This document shows, piece by piece, positions 1,508 through 32,000 of a stretch of 64,000 bases of DNA (the first letter of the stretch is position 1; each line of letters starts with the position of its first letter). Below the pieces are notes generated by a model that ran no database searches, was not told where the DNA came from, and saw nothing but the letters and a program-made list of their open reading frames with translations. Source of the stretch: Escherichia phage Ecwhy_1; sequence record MH791411.1; one strand, written 5' to 3'. A program made the position numbers and the translations under genes.

Positions 1508-1553
1508 ATCATAAATAAATCAAATGAATGAACGAATTATATGGAGTCCAAAA

Positions 1554-4500
1554 ATGACTAATAATTTTAAGTTTCAACCTACACAGATGGCTGAAGCAGT
1601 ACAGAAGAAGCTTTTCATAAAAAGATTGCCTGAGTGGATGCAAGGCTTAGAAGATATTCAGAAAGTCAGTGATGATGTTATCCAACAATGGTTTAATCCG
1701 GCTGAAAACGAATTAGTTGACGGCTACATTGGTGACATGGGTTCTCCGGCAGCAGCAGGGAACATCTTCTTACACGAGTCAACAGTCGCACGTCAACTAT
1801 ATCAGTTGTCCACTGCGTATGTCTCAAGAAATGATGACTCCAGCATTCGTTCAATTCAATTTTATGATGATCTAGTTGGCTATATGAATCATTACGGTGC
1901 ACTAACCGAAAATGAAAGCCGTTTGTTTAATGGTAAGTTCTATTCATGGACCCCACCAATTAACCCAAATAAAATGAACAACTACAGTTCATACCTATGG
2001 GATTCCAAGAATAGCTATAATATCACAACTCCAGATTATATTGTAATGGAACGTGGTGCAGAAAATGGTAACACTTGGTCACTACAAAACTTCTGGTACA
2101 CATTAGGTGAAACTTTAGAAGATGGTACTATCCTAACTGAAGAACTAATGCAAGATTCCCGTTTTGTTCGTGCTCGTGCACCAATTATCGAATACAATAA
2201 AAATATCGAACTAATGAACTACGGTACTAAATTCCGTGGGACAGTTGATTTGTTCTCTGATATTATTAAACCTGAAGATATCGTACAAAAAGATATTAAC
2301 AGCGGTATACGTATTGATGGTATTATTCCACAAGATGGTATGCGTATTCTTTTCACCAGTATTGGTAACAATGGTGAAAACAACCGAATTTATAAAGTAT
2401 ATGTTAAACGTATGCAAGATGGAACACGTGTGTATGGTCTAGCATTAGATCCAGACGAAGAATCTGAAAGCCGTCCGAGTGGTGAACCACAAGATGGTGA
2501 CGTAGTTCTTATTATCAAAGGTAATGAATTTGGTAACAGTTCCATGTATTGGGACGGTTCTCATTGGATTCAAGCACAGTCTAAAACTTCTGTGAACGTA
2601 TTTCCACAATTCCAATTGTATGACCGTAATGGTGTTAAACTAAACAACACTACTACCTATCCATCAAGTACTTTTACTGGTTCTTCACTATTTGGTTTTA
2701 AAATTAACTATAATTATGCAACTGATAGCGTTTATGGTTATAATATTGAACTAGGTGATTACAATTATTACACATATGAGAATTTCCTACAATCAACTCG
2801 TTATACTTACGAGCATTTGGGTGTGGAAGTTGAAATTGATGGACTATATTACTATAACGTAATTGGTGAAGGTAATACAATGAACCTAGAAACTGATTGG
2901 GTTCGTAGTACTGAATACTCCAAACAATATGTTAAACAAACTCCACAGGTTGAACGTACAGTAATGTTCCGCGTGTTCAGTACTGTTTATGACATGGAAA
3001 GTTTCAAAGACCCAGTTGAAGGAATGTATGCTTATGTAATTGAAGTTGACAGAACTTATCAATATTACAAAGCAGAACGTGAAACATATCTTGATTGGCA
3101 TGTTATCGTTGGTGATGGGGTACAAAGCGTTAAGTACAATCATACATTTGAATTGGCACAAAAAGTACTAGATAATTCTGATGATATTATCGAACTAGTT
3201 GTTGATGGTGTGGAAATAAAAGAATACACCAAAACTGTAGTTAATAATCAAGTACAAAGTATTACAATTGATAGCTCTGTTGATTTGGATGAAGATTCTG
3301 TTGTACAAATCAGAACTTATAGTAGCACTATCACTCCTAATAAAGAGTTGGGTGCATATGAAGTTCCAATTAACCTACAAAATAACCCATATAATTCAAA
3401 CATTGAATACATCAACCAAGGTGATTACACCCTGCACTTCCAAGATATTATTCAAAAGAATATTACATCTGGTTCTGCTGATGACTTTAACAATTACGAA
3501 GAACGTTTGGCTGCTGGTTTGGTTAATAATGGTGTAGGCACTAAAATTATTCAAAACGAAGCGTCCATGTTACCACTAATGGCACATACCGCTAATGAAG
3601 ATATTGATTTGTTTGAATCAATCATGTTTATGCAAGCAGAATACTTCCGCTTCATTAACAAGTTCAACACTCAAATGCTTCGTTTGTATGAAGAAGACCC
3701 AAGTGCTTTTCTTGGTAATAGTGCATCAAACATCGTAGATGCGATTCTAACAGCTATTAATATGGGACGTGATAGTACATTCCCATTCTACTATGACAAC
3801 GTTGCAAGCACTGCTGGGTTTATTCGTGCATTTGTCCCACCAACTCCACAGTTCTTGGGTATTTTGCAAGCTTATACACCACAAAAAGCAACATTCTTAA
3901 CTGCTGGTAGTAAATCTAGCTGTTATAATATCAGTCATACTGGTATTATTTCAAAAGCATACCGTGTTATCAATGGTGTTGATAAAATGGATGACGTAGT
4001 TTTTGAATTGGAAAATCGTATCTTTAATAGTATTGATCTTACTTTCAAGGATATTGATTATAAACCAGTACTAAACAGTGAAGACCTATTCCCAACTCCA
4101 TATTTCACTGGTACTGATTATAGTGCAGAAGAAAAGAAAACTCTATTACTACGTGGTTACATTAACTTCACAGCAACCAATGGCATTAGTAACAGTACTC
4201 ATGATTATGATGCAAATAACTGGAGAACTTGGAACTATACTGGTAGTTATTATGTTGTTGATGGTCAACGTACTGAAATTCCTGCTCGTGGTTCATGGCG
4301 TGCAATCTATACTGACCAATATGGCACATATCGTCCAGCAACCCATCCGTGGGAAATGATGGGCTTCTCTCAACGTCCTACTTGGTGGAACCAAGAATAC
4401 GAACCAACCGCAGTTCAAGTTGGTGAACGTGAGGGTGATGTTGTTTATGTGTATGAAGCACTAGTAATGAATGAAAATGGTGATTTGGTCCCAAGTGGAT

Positions 4501-7500
4501 TGTGGGATATTGATGGTACTATCGGTGATAGCAGTACTGGTACTATTTTGTCAGGTGAACGCCGTGGTCAATATGACAAATACAAGCGTTTCGGTGTACA
4601 GCCATTTAAAATCACTAAGACTGGCGAGAAAACCAGTACTGGTATTGATATTTGTGAAGTTGAGTATATTGCACCTGAAGTTTTAGGTCTTGTTAGTGGT
4701 AATTTAGATCATCGTGCAGAACCGTGGTCTTATGGTGACATGGGTGACATGGAATTCACTTACATGAACACTGCGATGTTTGCTTATGACCAAATGCTTC
4801 TTCTATACAAAGCAAAACCAGCACAGTTTGCAAACTATTACTGGGATACCCGTAATGATAACCTTAAACCAGTTTATACTGATGGTTCACAGTTCCTTTA
4901 TGGTGAAACTCGTAAGCGTCTAAACTTTGACAGTACTACATTAGTACATGGTGAGAAAAACACCCGTACTATCGGTTATCAAATGTTTGTTAGTGACTAT
5001 TTGATGTATCAGAATAAGAACATTACCACCAAATACGGTGACGTTGTTCGTTCTTCTTATGTCAATGTCGCTCACAAAATTGGTGGCTTTACTAAAGCAG
5101 ACCAATTGACATTCACTGCTAAATCTTTCGGTTTGATTTCACAAGAAAACCAAACTATCGGTCTAGTTCGTTCCAATAACATTCGCGATGAGCAAATGAG
5201 TGCAGTAAAAATTACTTGGAATGGTAGTGCATATCAAATTGATGGTTATGATTTAGTTGGTGCTAAATTTAAATATAAAATTCCAGTTAAAAATGGAAGA
5301 AAAGTAACTCTTAAATTGGAAGACAGAACTGTTGTTCATTACAATGAATGGAAATCTGAAGGTACATTAGAATATGGTAAAATATTCAATACATACCAAG
5401 AAGTTTATACTTTCATTTGTGGATATGGTGAATATCTAAAAGAACATGGCTGGATTTTTGAAGATGTAAATGATAGTGGTACTCAACAAGACTGGACAAC
5501 TATTGCTAAAGACTTTGTTATTTGGAGTCAGAATAATTTAAGTACTGGTGAGTTCATCTCCTGCACTCCAAGTGCAGCTAATGCTAAATTTGGTGCGGAT
5601 TTTGGTTCAGTTCAATCTGTTACACAGAATAGTGGTGGTGTTTGGTCACTACTCGATGATGAAAACCAAGGTATCCGTCAATATGAAATCGAAACTTCGC
5701 GTATCGGTAACGTATTCACAGTGAGAACTACATCTGAATCACAAAAACGTATGGCGTTGATTCGTTTGAGCCTAAGTTCATATGAACACGCAGTTGTTTT
5801 TGATGATAAAACTATCTTTGGTGATTACATTTACCAACCAACTTATGGTGCTATTCAAGAATTGATTAAAATGTATGGTTACATTACTGGGTCATGGACT
5901 GGTCGCCTACAAGCACCTGGTTTCATTATCCTAGAAGCAGGAACTTTACCATCATTTGAAAAATTAGTAACTGATTTTGAATTATATTATAATAGTGAAA
6001 CTCCTGTGAGTGATGTTCAGCTTCAAGAGTTATCAAATCACTTGATTGGCTATCAAACTCGTGATTATCTACAACGTATGATTAGTAGTGATGTTAGTCG
6101 TGTTGATTTCTATAAAGGATTCATTCATGACAAAGGTACTAACCAAGTAATGGAAAAAGTACTACGCGTTTCTAAATCTTACGACACTGATGAATATAAA
6201 GCACTTCAGGAATGGGCATTTAAGATTGGTACTTATGGTAATATCAATGGTAAGAAAAATCTACAATTTAAACTAATCAATGACCAATTTAAACAACAAC
6301 CACAGATGGTTTCGTTTGATGTTAATGCTACATCAAATGGTACTGGTAATGGTATTGTTTATTACGGTGAACAAGGGGTTGACTCACGCTGGATTACTCG
6401 TCCAAATGGTAAGTTTTCATTCCCAATGCGTAGTGGAAGAAGTGAGAATATCCAACTTCCAGACATTGGTCCTGTAACACTAGATGAAATTTCATACGTT
6501 ACTAAAGATTTCAGTACTGCATATAATGATCGTATCAATTATATGAATAACAGTGGTGAAATCCCAGATTCTGTATGGATGTTTAAAGATGGTAATGATT
6601 TGTGGAATATTTTCGAACTAGTAGACACTGAAGTTGAGATGCTCTCTATCGTTCCAATTGAAAATACCGATGTATATGCAGAACAATTCTGTAAAGTAAC
6701 TCTAAGTGATGATATCCCACTAAATGATGGTGATTATTATTACTTTGTTGATGAAACTAACTTTATGCCAGATACATTGACTATAGAAAGTCAATATTAT
6801 ACTGCGGGTAATGACCCTAGAGTTATGGTAGTTCCGTTTGACACTTCAATCACTATTGACTTCACTGATCCTGATACTCGCCCACGCTTGTATCGTTATG
6901 TTTCACGATTCAGTACTGAAGAGATGCGTCAGGAATACATTGACAGAAAATATAGTTTTAAAGCTCCACAAAGTACTTTGTTTGACCGCCCAACCACATA
7001 TGATGAGCGTACTAACATTACTGCGTTGTACCTAAACGTGTTTGACCCAATCAACGGTGTTATTCCTGGTGCAGCGATGCAGAACGTTACCTACACATCT
7101 CCAGTTGACCCAGCACAATACAACAGCAATGGTGAATTGATTCAAGCATGGGGTGCTGATAAAGTTGGTCAGGTTTGGTGGAACACCAGCACTGCTTTCT
7201 ACTTAGATTACACTCGTGCAATCTATGATGCTGATGGTAATGTGGATGTTGATGCAACAAATGAATATAAACGTTATAACTGGGGCAGATTGCTACCGCA
7301 CAGTACTGTTGATGTTCTTGAATGGGTATGTTCACCAGTTGAACCATATAACTGGGACAAATACTGCAAAGACGTTGCTAACAAAAATAAAAACAACACT
7401 ATGTACCTACCAAGCGGAACCGCATTGGAAGATAATTATAGTACGTTCTTAGAATATGATAGCACAACTGATACTTATGTTACAAAATACTATTTCTGGG

Positions 7501-10500
7501 TTCGTGATACAATCTATGTACCACCATTGCATTCCAGAACTAAATCTTGTACTGATATTGCTCGTATTATTAAAGAACCAGCACAGCTTAACATTCCTTG
7601 GTTTGCACCAATCAATGAAAGCTCGTTCATTCTAAGTAATATGCAATTTGAAGTCAACGATGACACAAGTATTTTAACTGTTTCTTATTACATGGATAAT
7701 ACTGAAGTTATTAAACATGACCAGTATCAATTATGTAAAGAAGGTGATAGCTATAACTTCAATCCATCAATCTGGACTTCTATGTGGAATTCTATGATTG
7801 GTCAAGAAACTACTGAATCAGGAACTGTTATTGATTTACTATATCCTTTAGTACCAAACGGTTTAGGTTCTAATAAGACTTGGTTCCAAGATGTAATTGA
7901 AGCTCGTAGAAACTTTGTAGAAAGTGCAAATAACTATTATCGCTCACAGAATATAACAACTAACACTGTTCTAATGGACGAAGTGTTTAATGTTAAAACT
8001 ACTGAAGTTAACCCGAATGAAGTATCATATCGTGTACTAACTTACAATAGTGAATTAGTCATTGCACCTGAAAGTGACAAGTTCAAAGAAAACGACGCAG
8101 TACTAGTAAGTACTAGTGGTGTATTACCTAACCCACTATCAACTAGCTCTGTATATTTTGTGCATATTGATGCTAATGGTTATATTCATCTAATGAATAG
8201 TCCATCAAGTGCTGGTAGTGTGGTTACCATTACATTGGAAAACCGTGGTGAAGGTCAACAGAAAATGATTAAACAATCAGACTATGTTGAAGCACTAGGA
8301 ACTTCATTGGACATGACCCAGTACTGGTCACTAGCAGATTGGTATGATATTGGCTACGATAAAAATACTGCATATACACAAGAATCCAGCCTAGAAGATG
8401 CAAACACTAAGAACTATCAAGTTGGTGACATTATCAGAATTACAGATGTTGATGGCATCTGGACATTGTACATTAAAGCACAATCACGTGATTCAGTTTA
8501 CTGGAAAGCAATTGGTCGTGAAAATAGTACAGTTGAATTGAATGATATGTTATACGCTGACTATACAGTTCGTGATGCTAATGGTTCGTTGAGTAATCGT
8601 GAGATTAACGTTCGTAAAGCACTAGCTTTATTGAAGAACTCATTCGACTTACATCAGAGTGAAATTGTGTTTGATATGGTTAAGTATGTTCACGTAGAAC
8701 AAAGCGTTGTTGATTGGGTATTCAAAACATCTTACATTTATATTGTAGGTTTAGAACAATCATTAGTACAGAACTATTCCAACGACAACTTGATTAATCA
8801 AATCGTTGAGTACTTTGAAGAAGTTAAACCATATAGAACTAAGATTCGTTCCCAGATTGAACAGAAAACTTCAGATGATGATTTAATTAAAGGTTTGTGT
8901 AATGATTTAGATCCTAATGGCTATATATTTGCAGATGGGACTTGGGTTAAAACGGAAAAAGACATTTGGGATTATGAATATGCTCAATTCAATGAGGTAA
9001 CTCAACGTTGGGAGCAAGTTGGTGAATTGCCAAGTGATTTCGTAACACCTAATCGCCGTTTCCAAGAAATTGATGTTATCATGCACTACGACAACACTCA
9101 ATGTAAACCAAATGATAATTTGGCAAGTGTTGATGTATTGGAAGAAGTGAATAAGAAATATCAATCTAATGCACAAGATGTTGTTAGTAATTTTGAATTA
9201 CAACGTTACAAATATACATTCCCAGAATACAGTGATGAAGATTTCGACCTATTGGTTGCTTATCAGATGCAATTGTATTACCCAGAATTGAACGTAACTC
9301 TAGGGATTGCTTACGGTGTTAACCAATGGTATGCAGACCATGCAGATGATTTGGTAGCAACCGCAGAATTCACAGAAACGTTGAATCGTGTATATAAAGA
9401 ATCAACACAAAATGAAATGTTTAATGACGTAAATCATTATGTTCAGTATAACACACTCTCTAACCGTTTGAAATTGTACACAGGTGCAGATGATGAAGTA
9501 ATTCATGATGAGGTTGGATGTGGATTTAGTGGGTTAACCTATGATGATAATCCAAGCACCAGACTACCGTTTGGTTATGCATCCAGTACTGATTATAACT
9601 TTGGTTACTTTGAAGTTAGTAGTGAGTTGTATAAAAAGTATGTTTCTTTAATTAAAGAAAACAATACTACTGCAACTGATGATGAAGTTAGAATTATACT
9701 TGAAGTTGAATATGGTGTTTATTCATATCGCCATGTAGATGAAGATGGAAATCAACGATTCTACAATGACGCAATTCATGTATTGTCTGGTATGCGTGGT
9801 TTGTATGACAAAGATGCTACCGACCATTATGAAAAGGCTGAAGAAATACTAAGTAGAATGCCTATTGATATTCATGCATTTACTATGATGCCACGAAAAT
9901 ATGTTTATGTTAATGTTAATGGTGTATACGAGAGTATCCCAGATGACCAAAGCATTGATGATTTCATGGAAGACAAATTCATAACTGACGGTCAACTAGT
10001 TCAATTGGCAGAAATAAATCTTGATGACTTACCTCTTGATAGAAATAACCCAATGTACAGTGATTATCAGCACATCCTAGATAGCATCACCGATGCTAAG
10101 TACTACGATGATATGAATGCATTTGATAACCTAGCACTTGAATCACAAACTTCCGAGTTAAAATGGGAAGTTGAAGGTGACGAAGTAGATCCGTACATAA
10201 TCGACATTTCTGATATTAACCCATCAGGAAGAAAGATTGGTCAGATTCGCTTCACAGTTGATGGTTATGGATTCAATAGTGTTTCACTAGTTCAATTGAG
10301 AGACAATAGTAGATATAAAACTGAAGGTATGGTTATCATCAACCCTTATAAAACAACAGAAGCAATTGTTAGTATTCCTTCTTACGCTAAGATTGAAAAT
10401 GATATTAGTAAATCATACAGTAAGTATGATGAAAAATACTTCTATAAAATTAAATCAATTGTTAGTGATACAGAAGCTGAAGTAATTGACAATACCCTAT

Positions 10501-11525
10501 CTGATGGTGATAAGGTTATGATATTCACAACTGATGGTGAAGATTATGTGAGATACCAAAACAATGCATGGGAAACCATCTTGAGTGTATCAAAAATCAA
10601 AACTGACACCACACCAACCTTGTACACAGTAAGAAACACTGCGAACGGAACTGTAGAACTACTAGATAGTACTGGAGTTGTACTTCGTTATGATAACATC
10701 ACTAAACAACAACAGAATGAACCAGCAATACCTCTAGCATTGAACATCGTTCGTATTAGAACCTTTGCTGATCCAGAATTCTTGGTTGATGGTGTTAAGT
10801 TGTATGAAACAAATAGAAACTATGCTATCGACGCAATGAACTATGAAGTATTCTACGACACAACACTATACGGTGGTTCTTATAATGATGGAATTACACC
10901 AGATGACGTTGATGTTTGGGTAGTGTCTAACGAGATATTTGAAGTTGATGGTGTTACCATTGATAACGGATATAACTTACCAATTACTGGTGCAGGTGTT
11001 CTTAGTGAGTTAGTGAGAACCAAAATGACTGATAGTGTGGAAATTAACGTGTTCGAGTATGATGTTGGTATTATTCAACCAGTACTGAATACTGAAGGGG
11101 TATGGGAATATGCATATCCACTAGTTAGTGATACATATATTGGTGTAGTTGGTGGAACCGTAACTAACATTACTGCTATCAGTGAAGAAAATACTACTTA
11201 TGTTTCACAACCAGATTCAGTTAGTCCATATAGTGTTACTAATAATGTTCTATCTGGTGCTGGTGCAAGTATGAATGATATTATTTCTCTTGGTTTTGAA
11301 AAAGTTGAAGTACGTTTTGCAAATAACTTACTCCGTGGGGTAATGTATAGTGCAGAACACGACTTTAAAGAGAATGTGACATATTCATTTAATGGCTTGA
11401 ACTTAGGTAAAGTTAATTTACTAAAACGTTATAGTGTTAACAGTTATCCAATCGAACTATCTGTTTACTCCGATAGTTTGCAAATAAGTGGTACTGACAT
11501 TAAAAATCTATTAGAAGTTAAATAA
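1554..11525 (+). CDS. Giant protein of about 3,320 aa; putative virion (tail/baseplate or fibre-associated) protein of unknown function
   Basis: One uninterrupted ORF of about 10 kb. The likely start is the ATG at 1554, which has GGAG 10 nt upstream (tggagtccaaaaATGact); the ATG at 1524 has no ribosome-binding site. Sits among structural genes and contains the DGDYYYFVDE motif shared with neighbouring fibre-like proteins. Internal antisense ORFs are short and AT-biased. Confidence 0.8.
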   Translation: MTNNFKFQPTQMAEAVQKKLFIKRLPEWMQGLEDIQKVSDDVIQQWFNPAENELVDGYIGDMGSPAAAGNIFLHESTVARQLYQLSTAYVSRNDDSSIRSIQFYDDLVGYMNHYGALTENESRLFNGKFYSWTPPINPNKMNNYSSYLWDSKNSYNITTPDYIVMERGAENGNTWSLQNFWYTLGETLEDGTILTEELMQDSRFVRARAPIIEYNKNIELMNYGTKFRGTVDLFSDIIKPEDIVQKDINSGIRIDGIIPQDGMRILFTSIGNNGENNRIYKVYVKRMQDGTRVYGLALDPDEESESRPSGEPQDGDVVLIIKGNEFGNSSMYWDGSHWIQAQSKTSVNVFPQFQLYDRNGVKLNNTTTYPSSTFTGSSLFGFKINYNYATDSVYGYNIELGDYNYYTYENFLQSTRYTYEHLGVEVEIDGLYYYNVIGEGNTMNLETDWVRSTEYSKQYVKQTPQVERTVMFRVFSTVYDMESFKDPVEGMYAYVIEVDRTYQYYKAERETYLDWHVIVGDGVQSVKYNHTFELAQKVLDNSDDIIELVVDGVEIKEYTKTVVNNQVQSITIDSSVDLDEDSVVQIRTYSSTITPNKELGAYEVPINLQNNPYNSNIEYINQGDYTLHFQDIIQKNITSGSADDFNNYEERLAAGLVNNGVGTKIIQNEASMLPLMAHTANEDIDLFESIMFMQAEYFRFINKFNTQMLRLYEEDPSAFLGNSASNIVDAILTAINMGRDSTFPFYYDNVASTAGFIRAFVPPTPQFLGILQAYTPQKATFLTAGSKSSCYNISHTGIISKAYRVINGVDKMDDVVFELENRIFNSIDLTFKDIDYKPVLNSEDLFPTPYFTGTDYSAEEKKTLLLRGYINFTATNGISNSTHDYDANNWRTWNYTGSYYVVDGQRTEIPARGSWRAIYTDQYGTYRPATHPWEMMGFSQRPTWWNQEYEPTAVQVGEREGDVVYVYEALVMNENGDLVPSGLWDIDGTIGDSSTGTILSGERRGQYDKYKRFGVQPFKITKTGEKTSTGIDICEVEYIAPEVLGLVSGNLDHRAEPWSYGDMGDMEFTYMNTAMFAYDQMLLLYKAKPAQFANYYWDTRNDNLKPVYTDGSQFLYGETRKRLNFDSTTLVHGEKNTRTIGYQMFVSDYLMYQNKNITTKYGDVVRSSYVNVAHKIGGFTKADQLTFTAKSFGLISQENQTIGLVRSNNIRDEQMSAVKITWNGSAYQIDGYDLVGAKFKYKIPVKNGRKVTLKLEDRTVVHYNEWKSEGTLEYGKIFNTYQEVYTFICGYGEYLKEHGWIFEDVNDSGTQQDWTTIAKDFVIWSQNNLSTGEFISCTPSAANAKFGADFGSVQSVTQNSGGVWSLLDDENQGIRQYEIETSRIGNVFTVRTTSESQKRMALIRLSLSSYEHAVVFDDKTIFGDYIYQPTYGAIQELIKMYGYITGSWTGRLQAPGFIILEAGTLPSFEKLVTDFELYYNSETPVSDVQLQELSNHLIGYQTRDYLQRMISSDVSRVDFYKGFIHDKGTNQVMEKVLRVSKSYDTDEYKALQEWAFKIGTYGNINGKKNLQFKLINDQFKQQPQMVSFDVNATSNGTGNGIVYYGEQGVDSRWITRPNGKFSFPMRSGRSENIQLPDIGPVTLDEISYVTKDFSTAYNDRINYMNNSGEIPDSVWMFKDGNDLWNIFELVDTEVEMLSIVPIENTDVYAEQFCKVTLSDDIPLNDGDYYYFVDETNFMPDTLTIESQYYTAGNDPRVMVVPFDTSITIDFTDPDTRPRLYRYVSRFSTEEMRQEYIDRKYSFKAPQSTLFDRPTTYDERTNITALYLNVFDPINGVIPGAAMQNVTYTSPVDPAQYNSNGELIQAWGADKVGQVWWNTSTAFYLDYTRAIYDADGNVDVDATNEYKRYNWGRLLPHSTVDVLEWVCSPVEPYNWDKYCKDVANKNKNNTMYLPSGTALEDNYSTFLEYDSTTDTYVTKYYFWVRDTIYVPPLHSRTKSCTDIARIIKEPAQLNIPWFAPINESSFILSNMQFEVNDDTSILTVSYYMDNTEVIKHDQYQLCKEGDSYNFNPSIWTSMWNSMIGQETTESGTVIDLLYPLVPNGLGSNKTWFQDVIEARRNFVESANNYYRSQNITTNTVLMDEVFNVKTTEVNPNEVSYRVLTYNSELVIAPESDKFKENDAVLVSTSGVLPNPLSTSSVYFVHIDANGYIHLMNSPSSAGSVVTITLENRGEGQQKMIKQSDYVEALGTSLDMTQYWSLADWYDIGYDKNTAYTQESSLEDANTKNYQVGDIIRITDVDGIWTLYIKAQSRDSVYWKAIGRENSTVELNDMLYADYTVRDANGSLSNREINVRKALALLKNSFDLHQSEIVFDMVKYVHVEQSVVDWVFKTSYIYIVGLEQSLVQNYSNDNLINQIVEYFEEVKPYRTKIRSQIEQKTSDDDLIKGLCNDLDPNGYIFADGTWVKTEKDIWDYEYAQFNEVTQRWEQVGELPSDFVTPNRRFQEIDVIMHYDNTQCKPNDNLASVDVLEEVNKKYQSNAQDVVSNFELQRYKYTFPEYSDEDFDLLVAYQMQLYYPELNVTLGIAYGVNQWYADHADDLVATAEFTETLNRVYKESTQNEMFNDVNHYVQYNTLSNRLKLYTGADDEVIHDEVGCGFSGLTYDDNPSTRLPFGYASSTDYNFGYFEVSSELYKKYVSLIKENNTTATDDEVRIILEVEYGVYSYRHVDEDGNQRFYNDAIHVLSGMRGLYDKDATDHYEKAEEILSRMPIDIHAFTMMPRKYVYVNVNGVYESIPDDQSIDDFMEDKFITDGQLVQLAEINLDDLPLDRNNPMYSDYQHILDSITDAKYYDDMNAFDNLALESQTSELKWEVEGDEVDPYIIDISDINPSGRKIGQIRFTVDGYGFNSVSLVQLRDNSRYKTEGMVIINPYKTTEAIVSIPSYAKIENDISKSYSKYDEKYFYKIKSIVSDTEAEVIDNTLSDGDKVMIFTTDGEDYVRYQNNAWETILSVSKIKTDTTPTLYTVRNTANGTVELLDSTGVVLRYDNITKQQQNEPAIPLALNIVRIRTFADPEFLVDGVKLYETNRNYAIDAMNYEVFYDTTLYGGSYNDGITPDDVDVWVVSNEIFEVDGVTIDNGYNLPITGAGVLSELVRTKMTDSVEINVFEYDVGIIQPVLNTEGVWEYAYPLVSDTYIGVVGGTVTNITAISEENTTYVSQPDSVSPYSVTNNVLSGAGASMNDIISLGFEKVEVRFANNLLRGVMYSAEHDFKENVTYSFNGLNLGKVNLLKRYSVNSYPIELSVYSDSLQISGTDIKNLLEVK

Positions 11526-11560
11526 CAAAAAGGAGAGCAAATGCTCTCCTTTTCTTTTTT
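11526..11560. terminator. Bidirectional intrinsic terminator
   Basis: AAAAA-aggagagc-aaat-gctctcct-TTTCTTTTTT; perfect 8-bp stem with an A-run on one side and a T-run on the other, lying between the convergent giant gene (+) and the ClpA-like gene (-). Confidence 0.8.
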
Positions 11561-13847
11561 ACGCAATAACTTTTTCTACTGCTTTAGTGCGTTTAGGTTT
11601 GATAGCCAATTTACCATCAATCACATCAAACGTCACGTTACCACCATTAACTAGAGAACCACACAACATCTCTTTAGCTAGTGGAACACGGATGTTTTGC
11701 TCAATAGTGCGTTTCATTGGACGTGCACCCATCCCAACTTTAACACCATTTGTTGCCAACCACTCACGTGCCGCTTTAGTCAGGGAAACTTTAACTTTGC
11801 GGTCTTTGATTTGTTCATTCAGACTACCCATGAACTTATCAATGATGCTGTCAATCGCTTCGCTGCTTAGGTCTTTGAATGTCACAATACTATCGATACG
11901 GTTGATGAATTCAGGTGGCAAGAATGCTTTAATAGCTTTATCTTGTGCTGTATCACTACCGCTCATCCCAATACTACGCTTGGTTGAATCTGCTGCACCA
12001 AGGTTAGTCGTCATAATAACAGTTACGTTATTGAAGTAAACAGTTTTACCTTGTGAACCAGTCAAACGTCCTTCGTCCAGAACCTGTAGGAAGGTTAGTA
12101 GTACTTTACGATCAGCTTTTTCGATTTCATCAAGCAACAGTACTGCATTCGGGAACTGCTCAATCTTGTCGAGTAGCAGACCGTTACCAGAATCGTGACC
12201 AACATAGCCTGGAGGTGAACCAATCAGTTTAGCAACAGTATGTTCCTGTGAAAACTCGGACATATCGAAACGAATCAGTTCGGAACCAGTTGCATCAGCC
12301 AGTGCTTTGGTAATTTCAGTTTTACCAGTACCAGATGGACCAACAAACATGAATGCACCTTGAACACTTGATTTATCACGCAGACCAGCACGAGCTACCA
12401 TCACGTTATCAACCAGTTTCTGTACTGCTTCTTCTTGACCGTATACACGAGAACGGAGTGCATCTGGTAGATTACGCATACGTTCACTTTCAGTGCAAGC
12501 AACCACGTTAATATCTAGGTTTGCGATACCTGCAACAACTTCTTGAATCAGTGCAACAGTGATGATGTTATCATCAGTTTCACGAGAACGTACTTTCGCT
12601 GCTGCCGCATCCATTAGGTCGATTGCTTTGTCAGGGAAGTGTTTGTTCTTCAGGAACTTATCACTTAGTGTAATAACTGCATCCATTGCTTCAGTACTGA
12701 ACTCTACGTTATGGAAAGTTTCATAAGTAGATTTCAAACCATTCACAATCGCACGGGTTTCATCAATTGTTGGCTCAACTACATCAATTTTCATGAAACG
12801 GCGAGTTAGTGCACTATCTTTTTCGATGTTTTTACGATATTCATCGTAAGTTGTTGCACCGATTACACGAATCTCACCACGAGATAGTGCAGGTTTGAGC
12901 ATGTTGCTCATATCCATAGAACCGTTGCTTGCTGACCCAGCACCAACCATAATATGGATTTCATCGATGAACACAATAGTGTTTTCACGTTTCTTCAGTT
13001 CTTTTAGTAGGTTATCGATACGTTCTTCGAACTCACCACGGTACTTAGTACCAGCAGTCAGTGCACCTACGTTCAGAGACAGAATTTCAACATCTTTAAG
13101 ATGCTCTGGTACTTCACCATCAGCGATTGCCTGTGCTAGACCATCAATGATTTGAGTTTTACCAACACCAGCTTCACCAGTCAGGATGGCATTCTTCTTA
13201 GTCTTACGGGCCAGAGTTTCAATCAGTGCAGAAAGCTCTTTCTGGCGACCAATCATTGGGTCAAGTTTACCTTCTTTTGCAAGTGCGGTTAGGTTAGTGG
13301 TGTAATCTTCTAAACCTTTTTGTTTGGACGATGGTTGCTGTTGTGCCACTTTTTTCTCCCCAGTTGGCTCATCACTAATGCTTTGAAGGTTGATTCCGTT
13401 GTCGATTGCTTCTACGTGCTTCTGTAGAGTTCGTGCTGCTTCAGTACAAGTGATACCCTCTTCACGCAATGCTGCTTCTAGTGCAGTATTTGGGAAGGAC
13501 AAACACTCAAACAGTACAAAATAAGCATCAATTGAGAAATCATCACGTTTAAGTTGCTCAATTACTGATTTCTTAGAAAGTTCCTGAACTACACGGTTCA
13601 CGAGAAGTGATGTGCGGTTCGCTTCATCACCATCAGCACTTTTAGGTGCATGTGGGAATGTTGTATTCTTCAGATATGCAATCAAACGACCGTGTAGGTT
13701 GTCTGCATCGATGTTCATATCTTCAAATACTGCTTTGATGCTATCGATTGTCAGTACTGTAGCACTTAGATGGTCAATAGTCAAGAATGTATGACCCAGA
13801 GAAGTTGCCAGTTCGTCGCTTTTTTTGAATAATTGGGTAAGATTCAT
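11559..13847 (-). CDS. clpA: ClpA-type ATP-dependent protease ATP-binding (unfoldase) subunit homolog
   Basis: ClpA-like N-domain (MNLTQLFKKSDELATSLGHTFLTIDHL...). Two AAA+ modules with Walker A motifs GEAGVGKT and GPSGTGKT and sensor/arginine-finger regions. KRSIGMSGSD aligns with the E. coli ClpA ClpP-docking IGL loop. The start is the ATG at 13847, preceded by AGGAGA; the ORF track's GTG at 13871 lies inside the promoter/5'UTR. Confidence 0.85.
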   Translation of the reverse strand: MNLTQLFKKSDELATSLGHTFLTIDHLSATVLTIDSIKAVFEDMNIDADNLHGRLIAYLKNTTFPHAPKSADGDEANRTSLLVNRVVQELSKKSVIEQLKRDDFSIDAYFVLFECLSFPNTALEAALREEGITCTEAARTLQKHVEAIDNGINLQSISDEPTGEKKVAQQQPSSKQKGLEDYTTNLTALAKEGKLDPMIGRQKELSALIETLARKTKKNAILTGEAGVGKTQIIDGLAQAIADGEVPEHLKDVEILSLNVGALTAGTKYRGEFEERIDNLLKELKKRENTIVFIDEIHIMVGAGSASNGSMDMSNMLKPALSRGEIRVIGATTYDEYRKNIEKDSALTRRFMKIDVVEPTIDETRAIVNGLKSTYETFHNVEFSTEAMDAVITLSDKFLKNKHFPDKAIDLMDAAAAKVRSRETDDNIITVALIQEVVAGIANLDINVVACTESERMRNLPDALRSRVYGQEEAVQKLVDNVMVARAGLRDKSSVQGAFMFVGPSGTGKTEITKALADATGSELIRFDMSEFSQEHTVAKLIGSPPGYVGHDSGNGLLLDKIEQFPNAVLLLDEIEKADRKVLLTFLQVLDEGRLTGSQGKTVYFNNVTVIMTTNLGAADSTKRSIGMSGSDTAQDKAIKAFLPPEFINRIDSIVTFKDLSSEAIDSIIDKFMGSLNEQIKDRKVKVSLTKAAREWLATNGVKVGMGARPMKRTIEQNIRVPLAKEMLCGSLVNGGNVTFDVIDGKLAIKPKRTKAVEKVIA

Positions 13848-13885
13848 GTATTCTCCTAAATGAGTAGTCACTCTAATTAATAAAC

Positions 13886-13913
13886 ATTATATCACATTCT
13901 TTGCGTTTGTCAA
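13886..13913 (-). promoter_or_regulatory. Sigma70-consensus promoter, TTGACA-N16-TGaTATAAT, reading leftward
   Basis: Minus strand reads ccTTGTTGACAaacgcaaagaatgTGaTATAATg: perfect -35, 16-nt spacer, extended -10. Sits about 33 nt upstream of the ClpA ATG. The same 12-mer (cattatatcaca on the + strand) recurs at 43184 and 55526. Confidence 0.7.
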
Positions 13914-29041: not shown

Positions 29042-32000
29042 ATGTACTCGATTAAAACGGATCTTGATGTATCTGGTAATTCCACGGTAGGTAAGGATCT
29101 TTTGGTCAAAGGTAATGCAGTATTCAGTAATGACCTAACGGTTAATGGGGAAGTGTCTTTTGCTAACGCAGTATTCACTGCAATTACCGCTGGTTCTGTG
29201 AATGTCACAGGTGCATTGGATGTTGCTGGTAAGGCAACCTTATCCGGTGGTGCTGATGTTTCAGGTGCTGCGACATTTGCAGGAAACATTACTGCTGCTG
29301 GCGGCACAACTGCAAAATTTGATAACTTAGAAGCTAATTCAGGATCATTTGATTCTGTTGAATCAACTGATATTACTTCAACTGGCACAGCAACTTTTAA
29401 AGATGTAAACATTTCTGGTACACTTGGTGGTACTTTTAATCTTTCTGATATTAATGCTACAACACTTAATGTGTCTGGTGCTTCAGCACTAACTGGTTCA
29501 GTCACATTGGGTGCAAATATCACTGGTCTTGCAAGTACTGCAAACTTCCGTGATATTCGTATCGGGCCTAATGAAGCAGGTCAAGCATATAGACTAAACT
29601 TTGGTTACACCGTTCCAGGACAACGACCAACCGTTCTTCTACAGAACGAAGTTCAATCCGAACTAATGTCACCAGCTAAGTTGAATGTTCTACAAACTGC
29701 AACATTTGGTGATTCTTCACTTTCAACTTACGGTATTACAGGTAATGGTTTAAACAAATTAGATTATGTAACTATTTCTGGTAACGCAATTCAATCACCA
29801 ACCACTCCTTTACTTGAAGTAACTAAAGGTAAAACTAAAGTTGTTGATTTAGAAGTAACTGGTGTAGCAACTATTCCTAATATCGAAAGTTCTGGTACTG
29901 CAAACTTTAACAACATCAACGTATCTGGTACTATTGGTGGTAGTTTTGATTTAGATGATATCCAAGCAACAACATTATCAGTATCCGGTGCTTCAGCACT
30001 AACTGGTGCAGTTACATTGGGTGCAAACATCACTGGTCTAGCAAGTACTGCAACATTCAAAGCAATCAATTTGGGTCAAAATACCGCTGATGCTAACGTT
30101 AAGCTAGGTTTTGCATATACTGCACCTAGTGCACGTCCAACAGTCTTGTTAGCAAACGAAGTTCAATCTGAACTAATGTCTCCTGCTAAGTTGAACGTTC
30201 TACAAACTGCAACCTTCGGTTCTGCTGCACTATCTACCTATGGTATTACTGGTAATGGTCTAAACAAATTAGATTATCTAACAATTACTGGTAACGCAAC
30301 ACAAAACCCTGCTACTCCACAACTTCAAGTTGGTGGTAAAGCAATTCTTAATGATGTTGAATTTACAGGTACTGTAACTGGCCTAACTGTTGATGTGAGT
30401 GGACAAGATCTAACTCCTAAATCAGTAGTTGCTGCTGAAGCAATCAAAGGTCAAACTCTTGAATCAGTTGGTCAAACAACTGTAGGTTCATCTCTACAAG
30501 TTGGCGGTACTGCAACTGTTACTGGTGCATTATCTGCTGCCTCTGGTACTTTCAGTGGTGATGTTAGTGGTTCTAAAGGTATCTTCAGTGGTAGCGTATC
30601 CGGTACAAGTGCAACCTTTACTGGGGATGTTAGCGGTGATAACGCAACCTTTAGTGGCGATTTATCTGCTGTAGCTGGCACTTTCAGTGGTGATGTAACC
30701 GTAACTGGTCAAACAATCACTGTTAAAGACTTGGTAGTAACTGGAACTTCAACTGGTGTAACTGCAATCGCTGACGTTGACGGTCTTGATATTGCTCCAA
30801 ACAAAGTTGATGTTACAACAACTCTATCTGTTGCTGGTGAATCAACTCTTGCTGGTATTACAGCAACTTCAATCAATAGTACTGGTGCAATTGCAGGTAC
30901 TGCAATTTCTGGCTCTACTATTACAGCAACTGGTGAAATTTCTGGTGCATCATCTGTAGTAACTGGTCTTTCTAAATCTGGTAGCGTTGAAACTGGTGCT
31001 CTAAAGGCATCTTCTGTTGAAACTGCAATCATTAGCAACACTGCTGGTGTGTCAATAACAAACAACACTTCCATTGCAGGTAATCTATCTGTGACTGGAA
31101 CTGTTACCCCTGGTGCAATTGACCTAAGCACTACTGATATTGATGCTAAGTCCCTAACTACAACTGAAGGTGCTAACATTGGTGGTAACCTAGTTGTTGC
31201 AGGTACAGTTGATCTAAGTGCTGCTGACGTTGCTGTTAAATCTCTAACCAGTACTGGTGCAGTTATTAGTTCTGAAGGTACTGTAAGTAGTGTTCTACCT
31301 AAACTTTCCAGTACTGAAGCTAATATTACCACAGTAACTGCAACCACTGCAAATGCTACCACACTAAATGTAACTGGTACATCAACTCTAGCTGGTGTTA
31401 ACGCTTCTGGTGCTATTACTTCTGCAACTAACATTACCGCTACTGGTGTATTAAAAGGTGCATCTGTTGAAACTGCGTCAATCAGCAATGCTGATGGTGT
31501 AGCAATTAACAATAACACTACAATCACTGGTAATTTGGACGTATCTGGGACATTGACCCCTGGTGCAATTGACCTAAGCACTACTGATATTAGTTCTAAG
31601 TCTCTAACCACAACTGAAGGTGCTACAATTGGTGGCGATCTTGTGGTAGCAGGTACTGTTGACCTAAGTGCTGCTGATGTGTCTGTGAAATCTCTTGCAA
31701 GTGCAGAGACAATTACAAGTGCTGGTGTTATTACAGTTTCGGATACAGTGAATTCTAGCACTCTACCAAAACTAATTACTACTGATGCAACTATTGGTGC
31801 TGTCCATGCAGCTACTATTGAAACAACTGGTTCAAGTACACTAAAACAAGTATCTGCTACTGAAGTAACAGCTACAAGTATTGTACTAAATTCAGTTGGT
31901 GAAGGTTTACGTGTTGACAATAATGCAAACATTAATGGTATATTAAGTGTTAATAATATTACTTCTACCAATGATACTATTGCAATTGCGAAAAGTGCTG

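Follow-up and report, generated by a model that had tools for sequence, protein, structure and literature searches.

The product of the clpA-like gene of Escherichia phage Ecwhy_1 (MH791411.1) is probably the ATPase/unfoldase subunit of a ClpA-ClpP-ClpS protease supplied by the phage. The stretch analysed here (the window) comprises 64,000 nucleotides, is collinear with the Asteriusvirus jumbo phage vB_Ec-M-J (OQ718158.1) with 98.4-98.9% identity, and derives from an E. coli jumbo phage of the 350-380 kb type. The partners of the unfoldase would be encoded beyond the window; in vB_Ec-M-J they are EcMJ_201, a peptidase of the ClpP family, and EcMJ_400, an adaptor-like protein with a ClpS domain. 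An earlier note on this DNA had listed neither clpP nor clpS in the window, and a tblastn search of the 64 kb likewise found no ClpP, ClpS or ClpX match. The gene looks like an orphan because the view is restricted to 64 kb; in vB_Ec-M-J, clpP is located about 87 kb from clpA and the clpS-like gene about 82 kb. That Ecwhy_1 itself carries ClpP and ClpS we infer from the genomes of these relatives.

The clpA gene and its signals

The clpA-like ORF is real and intact, is located on the minus strand (11559-13847) and encodes 762 amino acids plus a stop codon ending at 11559. The protein is 100% identical to that of five public phage records (vB_Ec-M-J, fEgEco12, EC.P1, WPEC3 and WPEC5). The longest ORF call reaches a GTG at 13871, but the likely start is the ATG at 13847, which is taken in the GenBank annotations of the relatives and has a Shine-Dalgarno sequence, AGGAG (13853-13857, minus strand), 5 nt ahead of it. 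Upstream, a sigma-70-type promoter (13886-13913, minus strand) was read from the sequence, with TTGACA and a TG-extended TATAAT matching at 12 of 12 positions and separated by a 16-nt spacer (optimal, 17 nt). The dedicated promoter and ribosome binding site described in the earlier note were thus found as stated. A hairpin with a 12-bp stem and T-runs on both strands (11527-11554) forms a bidirectional terminator, common to clpA on the minus strand and to the convergent gene on the plus strand encoding a 3333-aa virion protein. clpA is a stand-alone transcription unit, situated within the tail/baseplate module next to this giant virion-protein gene and oriented against the surrounding genes.

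Perfect 12/12 promoter sites number 41 in the vB_Ec-M-J genome; all are on the strand of clpA (41:0), and they cluster in the terminal-repeat and early-gene regions. The promoters of clpA and clpP are of one kind, namely host sigma-70 promoters with the TGTGATATAAT extended -10 element and a 16-nt spacer.

Class and domain organization of the phage ClpA

Judged by its sequence, the protein is a ClpA-type double-ring AAA+ unfoldase and not ClpB, ClpC or ClpX. The NCBIfam ClpA model TIGR02639 gave a single end-to-end match (residues 3-741) of 751.6 bits, which is under the equivalog cut-off of 993.15, and NF008263 scored 648.7 bits against a cut-off of 1350. As both scores fall under the curated thresholds, the protein is best called ClpA-like and not an NCBIfam 'equivalog'. 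Comparison with E. coli ClpA (1ksf) by phmmer gave an E value of 5.6e-178. The ClpB, ClpV, ClpC, ClpK and ClpG models each gave only two separate partial matches, with the break near residue 421; such split matches to ClpB, ClpV and ClpC indicate that the phage protein has no M-domain. The profile check proposed in the earlier note thus came out in favour of the ClpA class, and identity with the ClpB/Hsp104 disaggregases was rejected since the coiled-coil insert in D1 is absent. ClpX, which has a single AAA+ ring and a zinc-binding domain at its N-terminus, was rejected as well, its models matching the D2 small-domain region only (about 42 bits); E. coli ClpX itself cross-matches D2 only (E=3e-6).

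The full ClpA architecture proposed previously, with an N-domain and two AAA+ rings, was confirmed by TIGR02639, by the motifs and by a model of the N-domain. All of the following features are on the minus strand. The divergent Clp N-domain (residues 1-150; 13398-13847) was modelled by AF2 with a pLDDT of 82.7, and in a Foldseek search of the PDB all of the top 50 matches were N-domains of Clp/Hsp100 proteins; the ClpA N-domain 1r6o_B, for example, was matched with 20% identity and a TM score of about 0.6, and identity to the N-domain of E. coli ClpA is about 19-20%. A low-complexity linker follows (residues 151-190; 13278-13397), with pLDDT below 50 from residue 159 on. Motifs and alignment with E. 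coli ClpA delimit the D1 AAA+ module (12528-13277), which contains the Walker A motif GEAGVGKT (residues 224-231; 13155-13178), the pore loop KYRGEFE (residues 268-274; 13026-13046), the Walker B motif IVFIDEIH (residues 291-298; 12954-12977) and the arginine finger ALTRRF (12795-12812). The D2 AAA+ module with its small domain (11613-12527), delimited likewise, contains the Walker A motif GPSGTGKT (residues 503-510; 12318-12341), the pore loop GYVG (residues 547-550; 12198-12209), the Walker B motif VLLLDEIEKA (residues 569-578; 12114-12143), PEFINRID (11892-11915) and GARP (residues 707-710; 11718-11729). In an alignment of 27 homologues the AAA+ motif columns are almost invariant and all catalytic motifs are kept. 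The phage ClpA has every catalytic and pore element of an active double-ring unfoldase.

The putative docking loop and its drift

The segment KRSIGMSGSD (11952-11981, minus strand), which the earlier note had taken for the ClpP-docking loop, is homologous to the IGL loop of E. coli ClpA. In the phmmer alignment 'rksiglihqd' of E. coli pairs with 'krsigmsgsd', and IGM (residues 626-628; codons at 11964-11972, minus strand) falls on IGL 617-619 column for column. The homology thus stands, but the tripeptide is non-canonical and poorly conserved in the clade. The consensus of the docking tripeptide is (L/I/V)-G-(F/L) (PMC8745299), and IGM departs from it by a Met at position 3. Alignment of the loops of the phage clade by MAFFT with fast settings revealed the variants IGM, LGL, IGV, IGA, IGG, MNM and MSM, with a canonical tripeptide in about 19 of 111 cluster representatives (~17%). 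The length and position of the loop are kept in all members of the clade. The drift could mean that docking is dispensable. Every loop class has its own variant of the ClpP pocket; however, every class also corresponds to one phylogenetic clade, so the covariation of loop and pocket is no independent evidence.

ClpP and ClpS-like proteins of the related phages

EcMJ_201 of vB_Ec-M-J is a ClpP, matched over its full length by Pfam CLP_protease (E=1.3e-41) and 36% identical to E. coli ClpP. Models of cellular ClpP score 153-156 bits against it (TIGR00493 clpP, 153), compared with 51 bits for the head-maturation model. The catalytic triad S97, H122 and D171 is kept in all nine phage ClpPs examined, the ClpP of the relatives retains a ClpP-type N-terminal axial segment, and a C-terminal extension of 20 aa is conserved. 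Among the residues that contact the IGL loop in E. coli, only Y62, M92 and R192 are identical in the phage ClpP. Among the matches listed, ClpP was found in 40 of 40 phage records with ClpA, and in the eight records whose ClpA is at least 99% identical, ClpP shows 96.1-100% identity. A role as prohead protease was ruled out for this ClpP: a T4-type prohead protease (Peptidase_S77) is encoded separately in the head module, beside the portal and capsid genes, and ClpP is therefore not needed for head maturation.

Three other products of vB_Ec-M-J were considered and rejected. EcMJ_208, the second product labelled 'head maturation protease', matches the ClpP fold weakly (E=4e-4) and has a hydrophobic N-terminal segment resembling a signal peptide; EcMJ_295 ('ATPase') and EcMJ_290 ('Hsp70') have no Clp relationship.

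EcMJ_400 is a divergent ClpS-domain protein. Its gene was traced through the label 'ATP-dependent protease', the synteny of the IF-3/ClpS pair of phage GAP32 and a family profile. A tblastn search of the vB_Ec-M-J genome with E. coli ClpS found nothing, a false negative, and EcMJ_400 on its own had no Pfam match at E<=0.01, that to Pfam ClpS being below threshold (E=0.014). EcMJ_400 is 38% identical to GAP32_314, which itself matches Pfam ClpS with an E value of 9.4e-11. Of 19 members of the family, 18 match Pfam ClpS, and in the PDB the family profile retrieved ClpS chains and nothing else, that of E. coli with an E value of 4e-7. The gene occurs in 71 records, every one of them in the RaK2-like clade. 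By hand alignment several residues of the N-degron pocket are altered, and the protein has additional N- and C-terminal segments.

Distribution of clpA among phages

The rarity of viral unfoldases of this type, asserted earlier, was borne out: out of 50,697 phage records, about 195 contain a match to the ClpA protein, and in 96 the match covers 80% or more of its length. Identity to the proteins of phages 121Q and PBECO4 is 93%, and the RaK2 protein is 75% identical. The gene also keeps its genomic position in phAPEC6 and in RaK2, which belongs to a different genus, and clpA, clpP and the clpS-like gene occur together across the RaK2-like jumbo-phage clade. The phAPEC6 orthologue gp246c is missing from the virion proteome of 62 proteins, in which its neighbours gp244, gp245 and gp248 were detected.

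Dozens of public jumbo-phage genomes already list this gene under the label ClpA-like or ATP-dependent Clp protease subunit. Most RaK2-like phages share a highly conserved ClpA (PMC6102473); this conservation and the phage ClpP and ClpS have been published (PMC6102473, PMC7824862), and public records of 121Q (gp581, gp464 and gp48) already name Clp genes of the trio. The papers on fEgEco12, Sharanji and PA5oct contain nothing usable about Clp genes, and a literature search found no tests of interaction, activity, expression or substrates for the phage ClpA-ClpP-ClpS trio.

Probable function of the phage ClpA

As subunit of a phage-encoded protease, clpA would be transcribed by the host RNA polymerase in the early or middle period, apart from the late tail/baseplate genes. 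ClpA hexamers would then dock through their IGM loops on a phage ClpP tetradecamer, the pocket of which may have diverged along with the loop, while the ClpS-like protein could sit on the N-domain and set the choice of substrates. During infection the complex would degrade a selection of proteins of the host or the phage. As the docking tripeptide drifts and the phage ClpP pocket is unlike that of E. coli, the interface may be private to the phage. Taken further, the RaK2-like jumbo phages may possess a private, orthogonal ClpA-ClpP-ClpS machine with re-coded docking, used for the early destruction of host proteins chosen by the phage, such as defence or regulatory proteins. Its insulation from host ClpP, ClpA and ClpX is suggested by the drifting tripeptides, the remodelled ClpP pocket, the ClpP extension and the altered ClpS-like adaptor; we put this forward as a tentative possibility.

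The earlier note had proposed that the unfoldase, an orphan with neither clpP nor clpS nearby, could form a chimeric protease with the ClpP of the host, and had named as a refutation a phage clpP elsewhere, which would make it an ordinary complete protease. Such a clpP is present in every sequenced relative, together with a ClpS-domain protein, and the orphan view was given up; nor is cross-docking on host ClpP any longer needed to explain the gene. A hybrid enzyme, in which phage ClpA acts mainly on the abundant host ClpP, with or without the phage ClpP, and so redirects host proteolysis, nevertheless has some points in its favour: IGM is chemically near IGL and lies in the homologous loop, R192, Y62 and M92 are kept in the pockets of both ClpPs, and an early-type promoter is compatible with host takeover. 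Yet the phage family always has a ClpP of its own, the phage loop has Ser and Gly in place of the E. coli contact residues I620 and H621, and relatives whose enterobacterial hosts have canonical ClpP carry IGG or MNM, a misfit to (L/I/V)-G-(F/L) (PMC8745299). We regard the hybrid as rather unlikely.

ClpA could instead work independently of ClpP, as an unfoldase or chaperone in virion assembly, with the 3333-aa virion protein and other tail or baseplate parts as candidate clients. Iyer et al. (2021) raised such a role in a general way for the ClpA and ClpX of jumbo phages, and a translocase or assembly role was proposed elsewhere (PMC7824862). It would suit the location inside the tail/baseplate module adjoining the giant gene, which is conserved in phAPEC6 and RaK2, and the drift of the tripeptide suggests weak constraint on ClpP binding. 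But clpA, with its own strand, sigma-70 promoter and terminator, is transcribed separately from the late structural genes; phages that have it also strictly retain ClpP and the ClpS-like gene, and loop length and position are unchanged in all members. This role too seems unlikely. Only the slightly raised GC content over clpA (0.41 versus ~0.36) would speak for a host clpA captured recently as a passenger (moron) gene with no phage-specific role. The nearest bacterial ClpAs found show only about 40% identity, whereas the phage proteins form a discrete clade of at least 53% identity over at least six genera, in syntenic position across genera and with all catalytic motifs conserved. This deep clade structure effectively refutes recent capture, which we consider highly improbable.

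Thus the phage-encoded protease is the reading we favour. The drift of the tripeptide and of the ClpP pocket could provide a natural data set for the co-evolution of an AAA+/peptidase interface, a modest lead and no discovery.

Comparison with known systems

The closest cellular counterpart is ClpA of the E. coli ClpAP/ClpS system (PDB 1ksf, 6w1z, 7uiv), which at 758 aa is of one length class with the phage protein of 762 aa. The two align end to end, with the same order of N-domain, D1 and D2 and no M-domain. Each ring has Walker A and B motifs, and the two proteins share the pore loops (KYR and GYVG), arginine fingers, the GARP sensor and a loop at the ClpP-docking position. They differ in the loop itself, where the phage protein has IGM for IGL followed by SGS for IHQ; the phage loop is also 3-4 residues shorter than in the aligned bacterial ClpAs. 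In contrast to the clpS-clpA operon of E. coli, the viral genes for the ClpP and ClpS partners lie scattered, at distances of about 82-87 kb from clpA. The ClpAs of RaK2-like phages (121Q gp581, PBECO4, phAPEC6 gp246c, RaK2 ORF069, GAP32 and Atu_ph07 gp292) represent the same gene at the same position, the sole difference being the tripeptide, which is IGM here, LGL in 121Q-like phages and IGV in RaK2. EcMJ_201 shares the ClpP fold with the ClpP-like prohead proteases (S14, NF045542) and is auto-annotated as 'head maturation protease'; unlike these, it scores as a cellular ClpP, keeps the axial segment and is located far from the head genes.

The clpA gene and its transcription unit

The clpA gene is a long single ORF on the minus strand of the window, ending at 11559 and extending at its furthest 5′ limit to a GTG at 13871. 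Because an AGGAG precedes the ATG at 13847 by 5 nt, and this ATG is used as the start in the GenBank annotations of relatives (2289 nt), ClpA was taken to be 762 aa in length. A sigma-70-type promoter (TTGACA-16 nt-TATAAT with a TG extension, 12/12) was found at 13913-13886 on the minus strand; the dedicated perfect-consensus promoter and RBS described in the earlier note are thus both present. As promoter, RBS and ORF were all found within 11559-13913, these coordinates delimit a monocistronic unit, with a terminator just beyond: a hairpin at 11527-11554 with a 12-bp stem and T-runs on both strands, located between clpA and a convergent gene. The latter (1524-11525, plus strand) is one 3333-aa ORF, orthologous to phAPEC6 gp245 (382 kDa, detected in virions), and has this bidirectional terminator in common with clpA.

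Class and motifs of the phage ClpA

Pfam domains AAA (D1), AAA_lid_9, AAA_2 (D2) and ClpB_D2-small were identified in the product. The top NCBIfam model was that of ClpA (TIGR02639), which aligned in a single stretch (residues 3-741 versus model positions 5-733 of 734); its score, 751.6 bits, falls short of the 993 set as the equivalog threshold for ClpA. The ClpB, ClpV, ClpK and ClpG models matched in two stretches only, broken near residue 421, and therefore the M-domain is missing. The best PDB matches were E. coli ClpA chains (E=5.6e-178; phage residues 17-741 versus 20-734), and chains of ClpB, ClpC and Hsp104 also aligned in two pieces. The full set of catalytic and pore motifs is present. 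The N-domain is highly divergent in sequence; its AlphaFold2 model (pLDDT 82.7), compared with the PDB, retrieved only Clp/Hsp100 N-domains, including that of ClpA in complex with ClpS (1r6o_B; 20% identity, TM ~0.6). In the HMMER alignment, phage 'krsigmsgsd' matched 'rksiglihqd' of E. coli ClpA column for column, and phage IGM therefore corresponds to the ClpP-docking tripeptide IGL 617-619 (bioRxiv 10.1101/820209). The full ClpA architecture and the aligned docking loop had both been proposed from the sequence, and that observation was right in each particular tested.

Relatives of the window

The DNA of the clpA locus is 99.8% identical to that of the Escherichia jumbo phage vB_Ec-M-J (OQ718158.1, Asteriusvirus, 378,573 bp) and shares 84% identity with 121Q and PBECO4. 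Five public records carry exactly this protein (100% identity); its counterparts in 121Q-like phages are 93% identical to it, and those of Klebsiella phages of the RaK2 type 75%. Comparison with the whole vB_Ec-M-J genome placed the window at positions 182,523-118,725 with 98.4-98.9% identity, barring a divergent tail-fibre block and the last 2 kb, which hold a segment of 89.5% identity. The tail-fibre block (window ~30,400-33,500) has no full-length counterpart in the otherwise 98-99% identical vB_Ec-M-J; its matches are to other stretches of tail fibre and reach only 72-78% identity, which suggests exchange of a receptor-binding module. Among cluster representatives from a search of 5.8 billion proteins, the phage ClpAs form a discrete clade (at least 53% identity), and bacterial ClpAs fall to ~40-45%. 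At ~333-351 kb OQ718158.1 also has 14 paralogous genes in tandem (~1.1 kb each), whose annotation is 'regulator of chromosome condensation' (RCC1-like repeats).

ClpP and ClpS-like proteins

Tblastn of E. coli ClpP, ClpS and ClpX against the window found nothing save a cross-match of ClpX to ClpA D2, in agreement with the reported lack of clpP and clpS there. The idea of an orphan without a phage clpP was not borne out, the note's own refuting case of a phage clpP elsewhere being found in relatives: these encode ClpP, such as EcMJ_201 of vB_Ec-M-J (81,671-82,366), ~87 kb from clpA. EcMJ_201 is a ClpP over its full length, with a Pfam CLP_protease match at E=1.3e-41 and 153 bits from TIGR00493, versus 51 bits from the head-maturation model related to ClpP. 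Its identity to E. coli ClpP is 36%, and it retains Ser97, His122, Asp171 and the ClpP N-terminal segment. The prohead protease is encoded by a separate Peptidase_S77 (T4 gp21-type) gene, adjacent to those for portal and capsid. Each of the 40 records that the ClpA query listed was included in the ClpP match list. As judged by sequence comparison, the clpP elsewhere is that of the relatives' genomes, this phage being known from the window alone. Another protein of ClpP fold, highly divergent (202 aa, phrog_26024), is encoded at 85,301-85,909 of OQ718158.1. Its gene is 3 kb distant from clpP proper and, like it, has a promoter of the TAGACA-16-TATAAT type; the N-terminal segment of this protein is hydrophobic and signal-peptide-like.

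A ClpS-like protein of 181 aa (EcMJ_400, phrog_15940) is encoded at 252,760-253,305 of OQ718158.1, adjoining the IF-3 gene and ~82 kb from clpA on the side opposite clpP; direct tblastn of E. coli ClpS against this genome missed it. Along its whole length it shares 38% identity with GAP32_314, a protein also found in an IF-3 context and matching Pfam ClpS (E=9.4e-11), as do 18 of the 19 family members. In the PDB, a profile of the 19 sequences retrieved ClpS chains only, that of E. coli at E=4e-7. The gene occurs in 71 phage records, all within this clade, and the 121Q copy already bears the annotation 'protease adapter protein ClpS'. EcMJ_400 has extra N-terminal (~65 aa) and C-terminal (~40 aa) segments, and by hand alignment its N-degron pocket is altered relative to E. 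coli ClpS (N34D, D36P, M40A, H66N).

The putative ClpA-ClpP docking interface

The published consensus of the docking tripeptide is (L/I/V)-G-(F/L) (PMC8745299), which only ~19 of the 111 full-length phage-clade representatives fit; their tripeptides include IGM, MGM, LGM, LGL, IGV, IGA, IGG, MSM, MNM and others, versus [I/M]GF in the six bacterial sequences. ClpP with an intact triad is kept by phages having IGG (EJP2, Hallingskeid), IGV (RaK2) and MNM (Munch). Of the E. coli ClpP residues contacting the IGL loop (A52, L48, F49, F82, L23, Y60, Y62, I90, M92, F112, L114, L189, E26 and R192; 10.1101/820209), only Y62, M92 and R192 are kept in phage ClpP. A C-terminal extension of ~20 aa (...RNEEGKYLVKRRGGVEEWV) is conserved in all phage ClpPs of the clade and absent from E. 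coli ClpP. This extension immediately follows R192 and N193, both conserved, at the C-terminal strand that supplies the docking-pocket residues L189 and R192. Each loop class has a pocket variant of its own, for example IGG with Y189, Q192 and S26; since every class is also a single clade, this pairing is only suggestive of covariation.

Promoters and interpretation

In the vB_Ec-M-J genome, perfect TTGACA-N16-18-TATAAT sites number 41 and are confined to one strand (41:0), versus ~0.4 per strand expected by a rough calculation from base composition. The clpA promoter is one of these sites, which are densest in the direct terminal repeats (21.5 kb) and in other regions of small genes and suggest a large early-gene class transcribed by host RNA polymerase. 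The clpP promoter is TAGACA-16-TATAAT, with the TGTGATATAAT extended -10 as at clpA. The most economical reading, and to us a fairly probable one, is a phage-encoded ClpA-ClpP-ClpS protease whose genes host RNA polymerase would transcribe from early-type promoters.

The clpA gene lies antisense within the tail/baseplate module, flanked by the 3333-aa virion protein gene and other virion genes, a position kept in phAPEC6 and RaK2. Virion proteomics of phAPEC6 recovered the products of its neighbours, gp244, gp245 and gp248, and not the ClpA-like gp246c; CBB virions yielded a single ClpP peptide. A ClpP-independent chaperone or translocase for assembly, a role suggested in generic terms by Iyer et al. 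2021 (PMC7824862), is unlikely. Docking chiefly on host ClpP, to which the aligned loop had pointed, is quite unlikely; the orphan unfoldase hijacking host ClpP was an appearance, because the view was limited to the window. That this gene, with its complete motifs, is a mere passenger is scarcely credible. A literature search for experimental work on these phage Clp proteins found none.

The earlier note describes correctly a gene that is known and already annotated. What remains as a lead is the interface between ClpA and ClpP, non-canonical and drifting, together with the divergent adaptor resembling ClpS; these could be the mark of an orthogonal phage proteolytic system.
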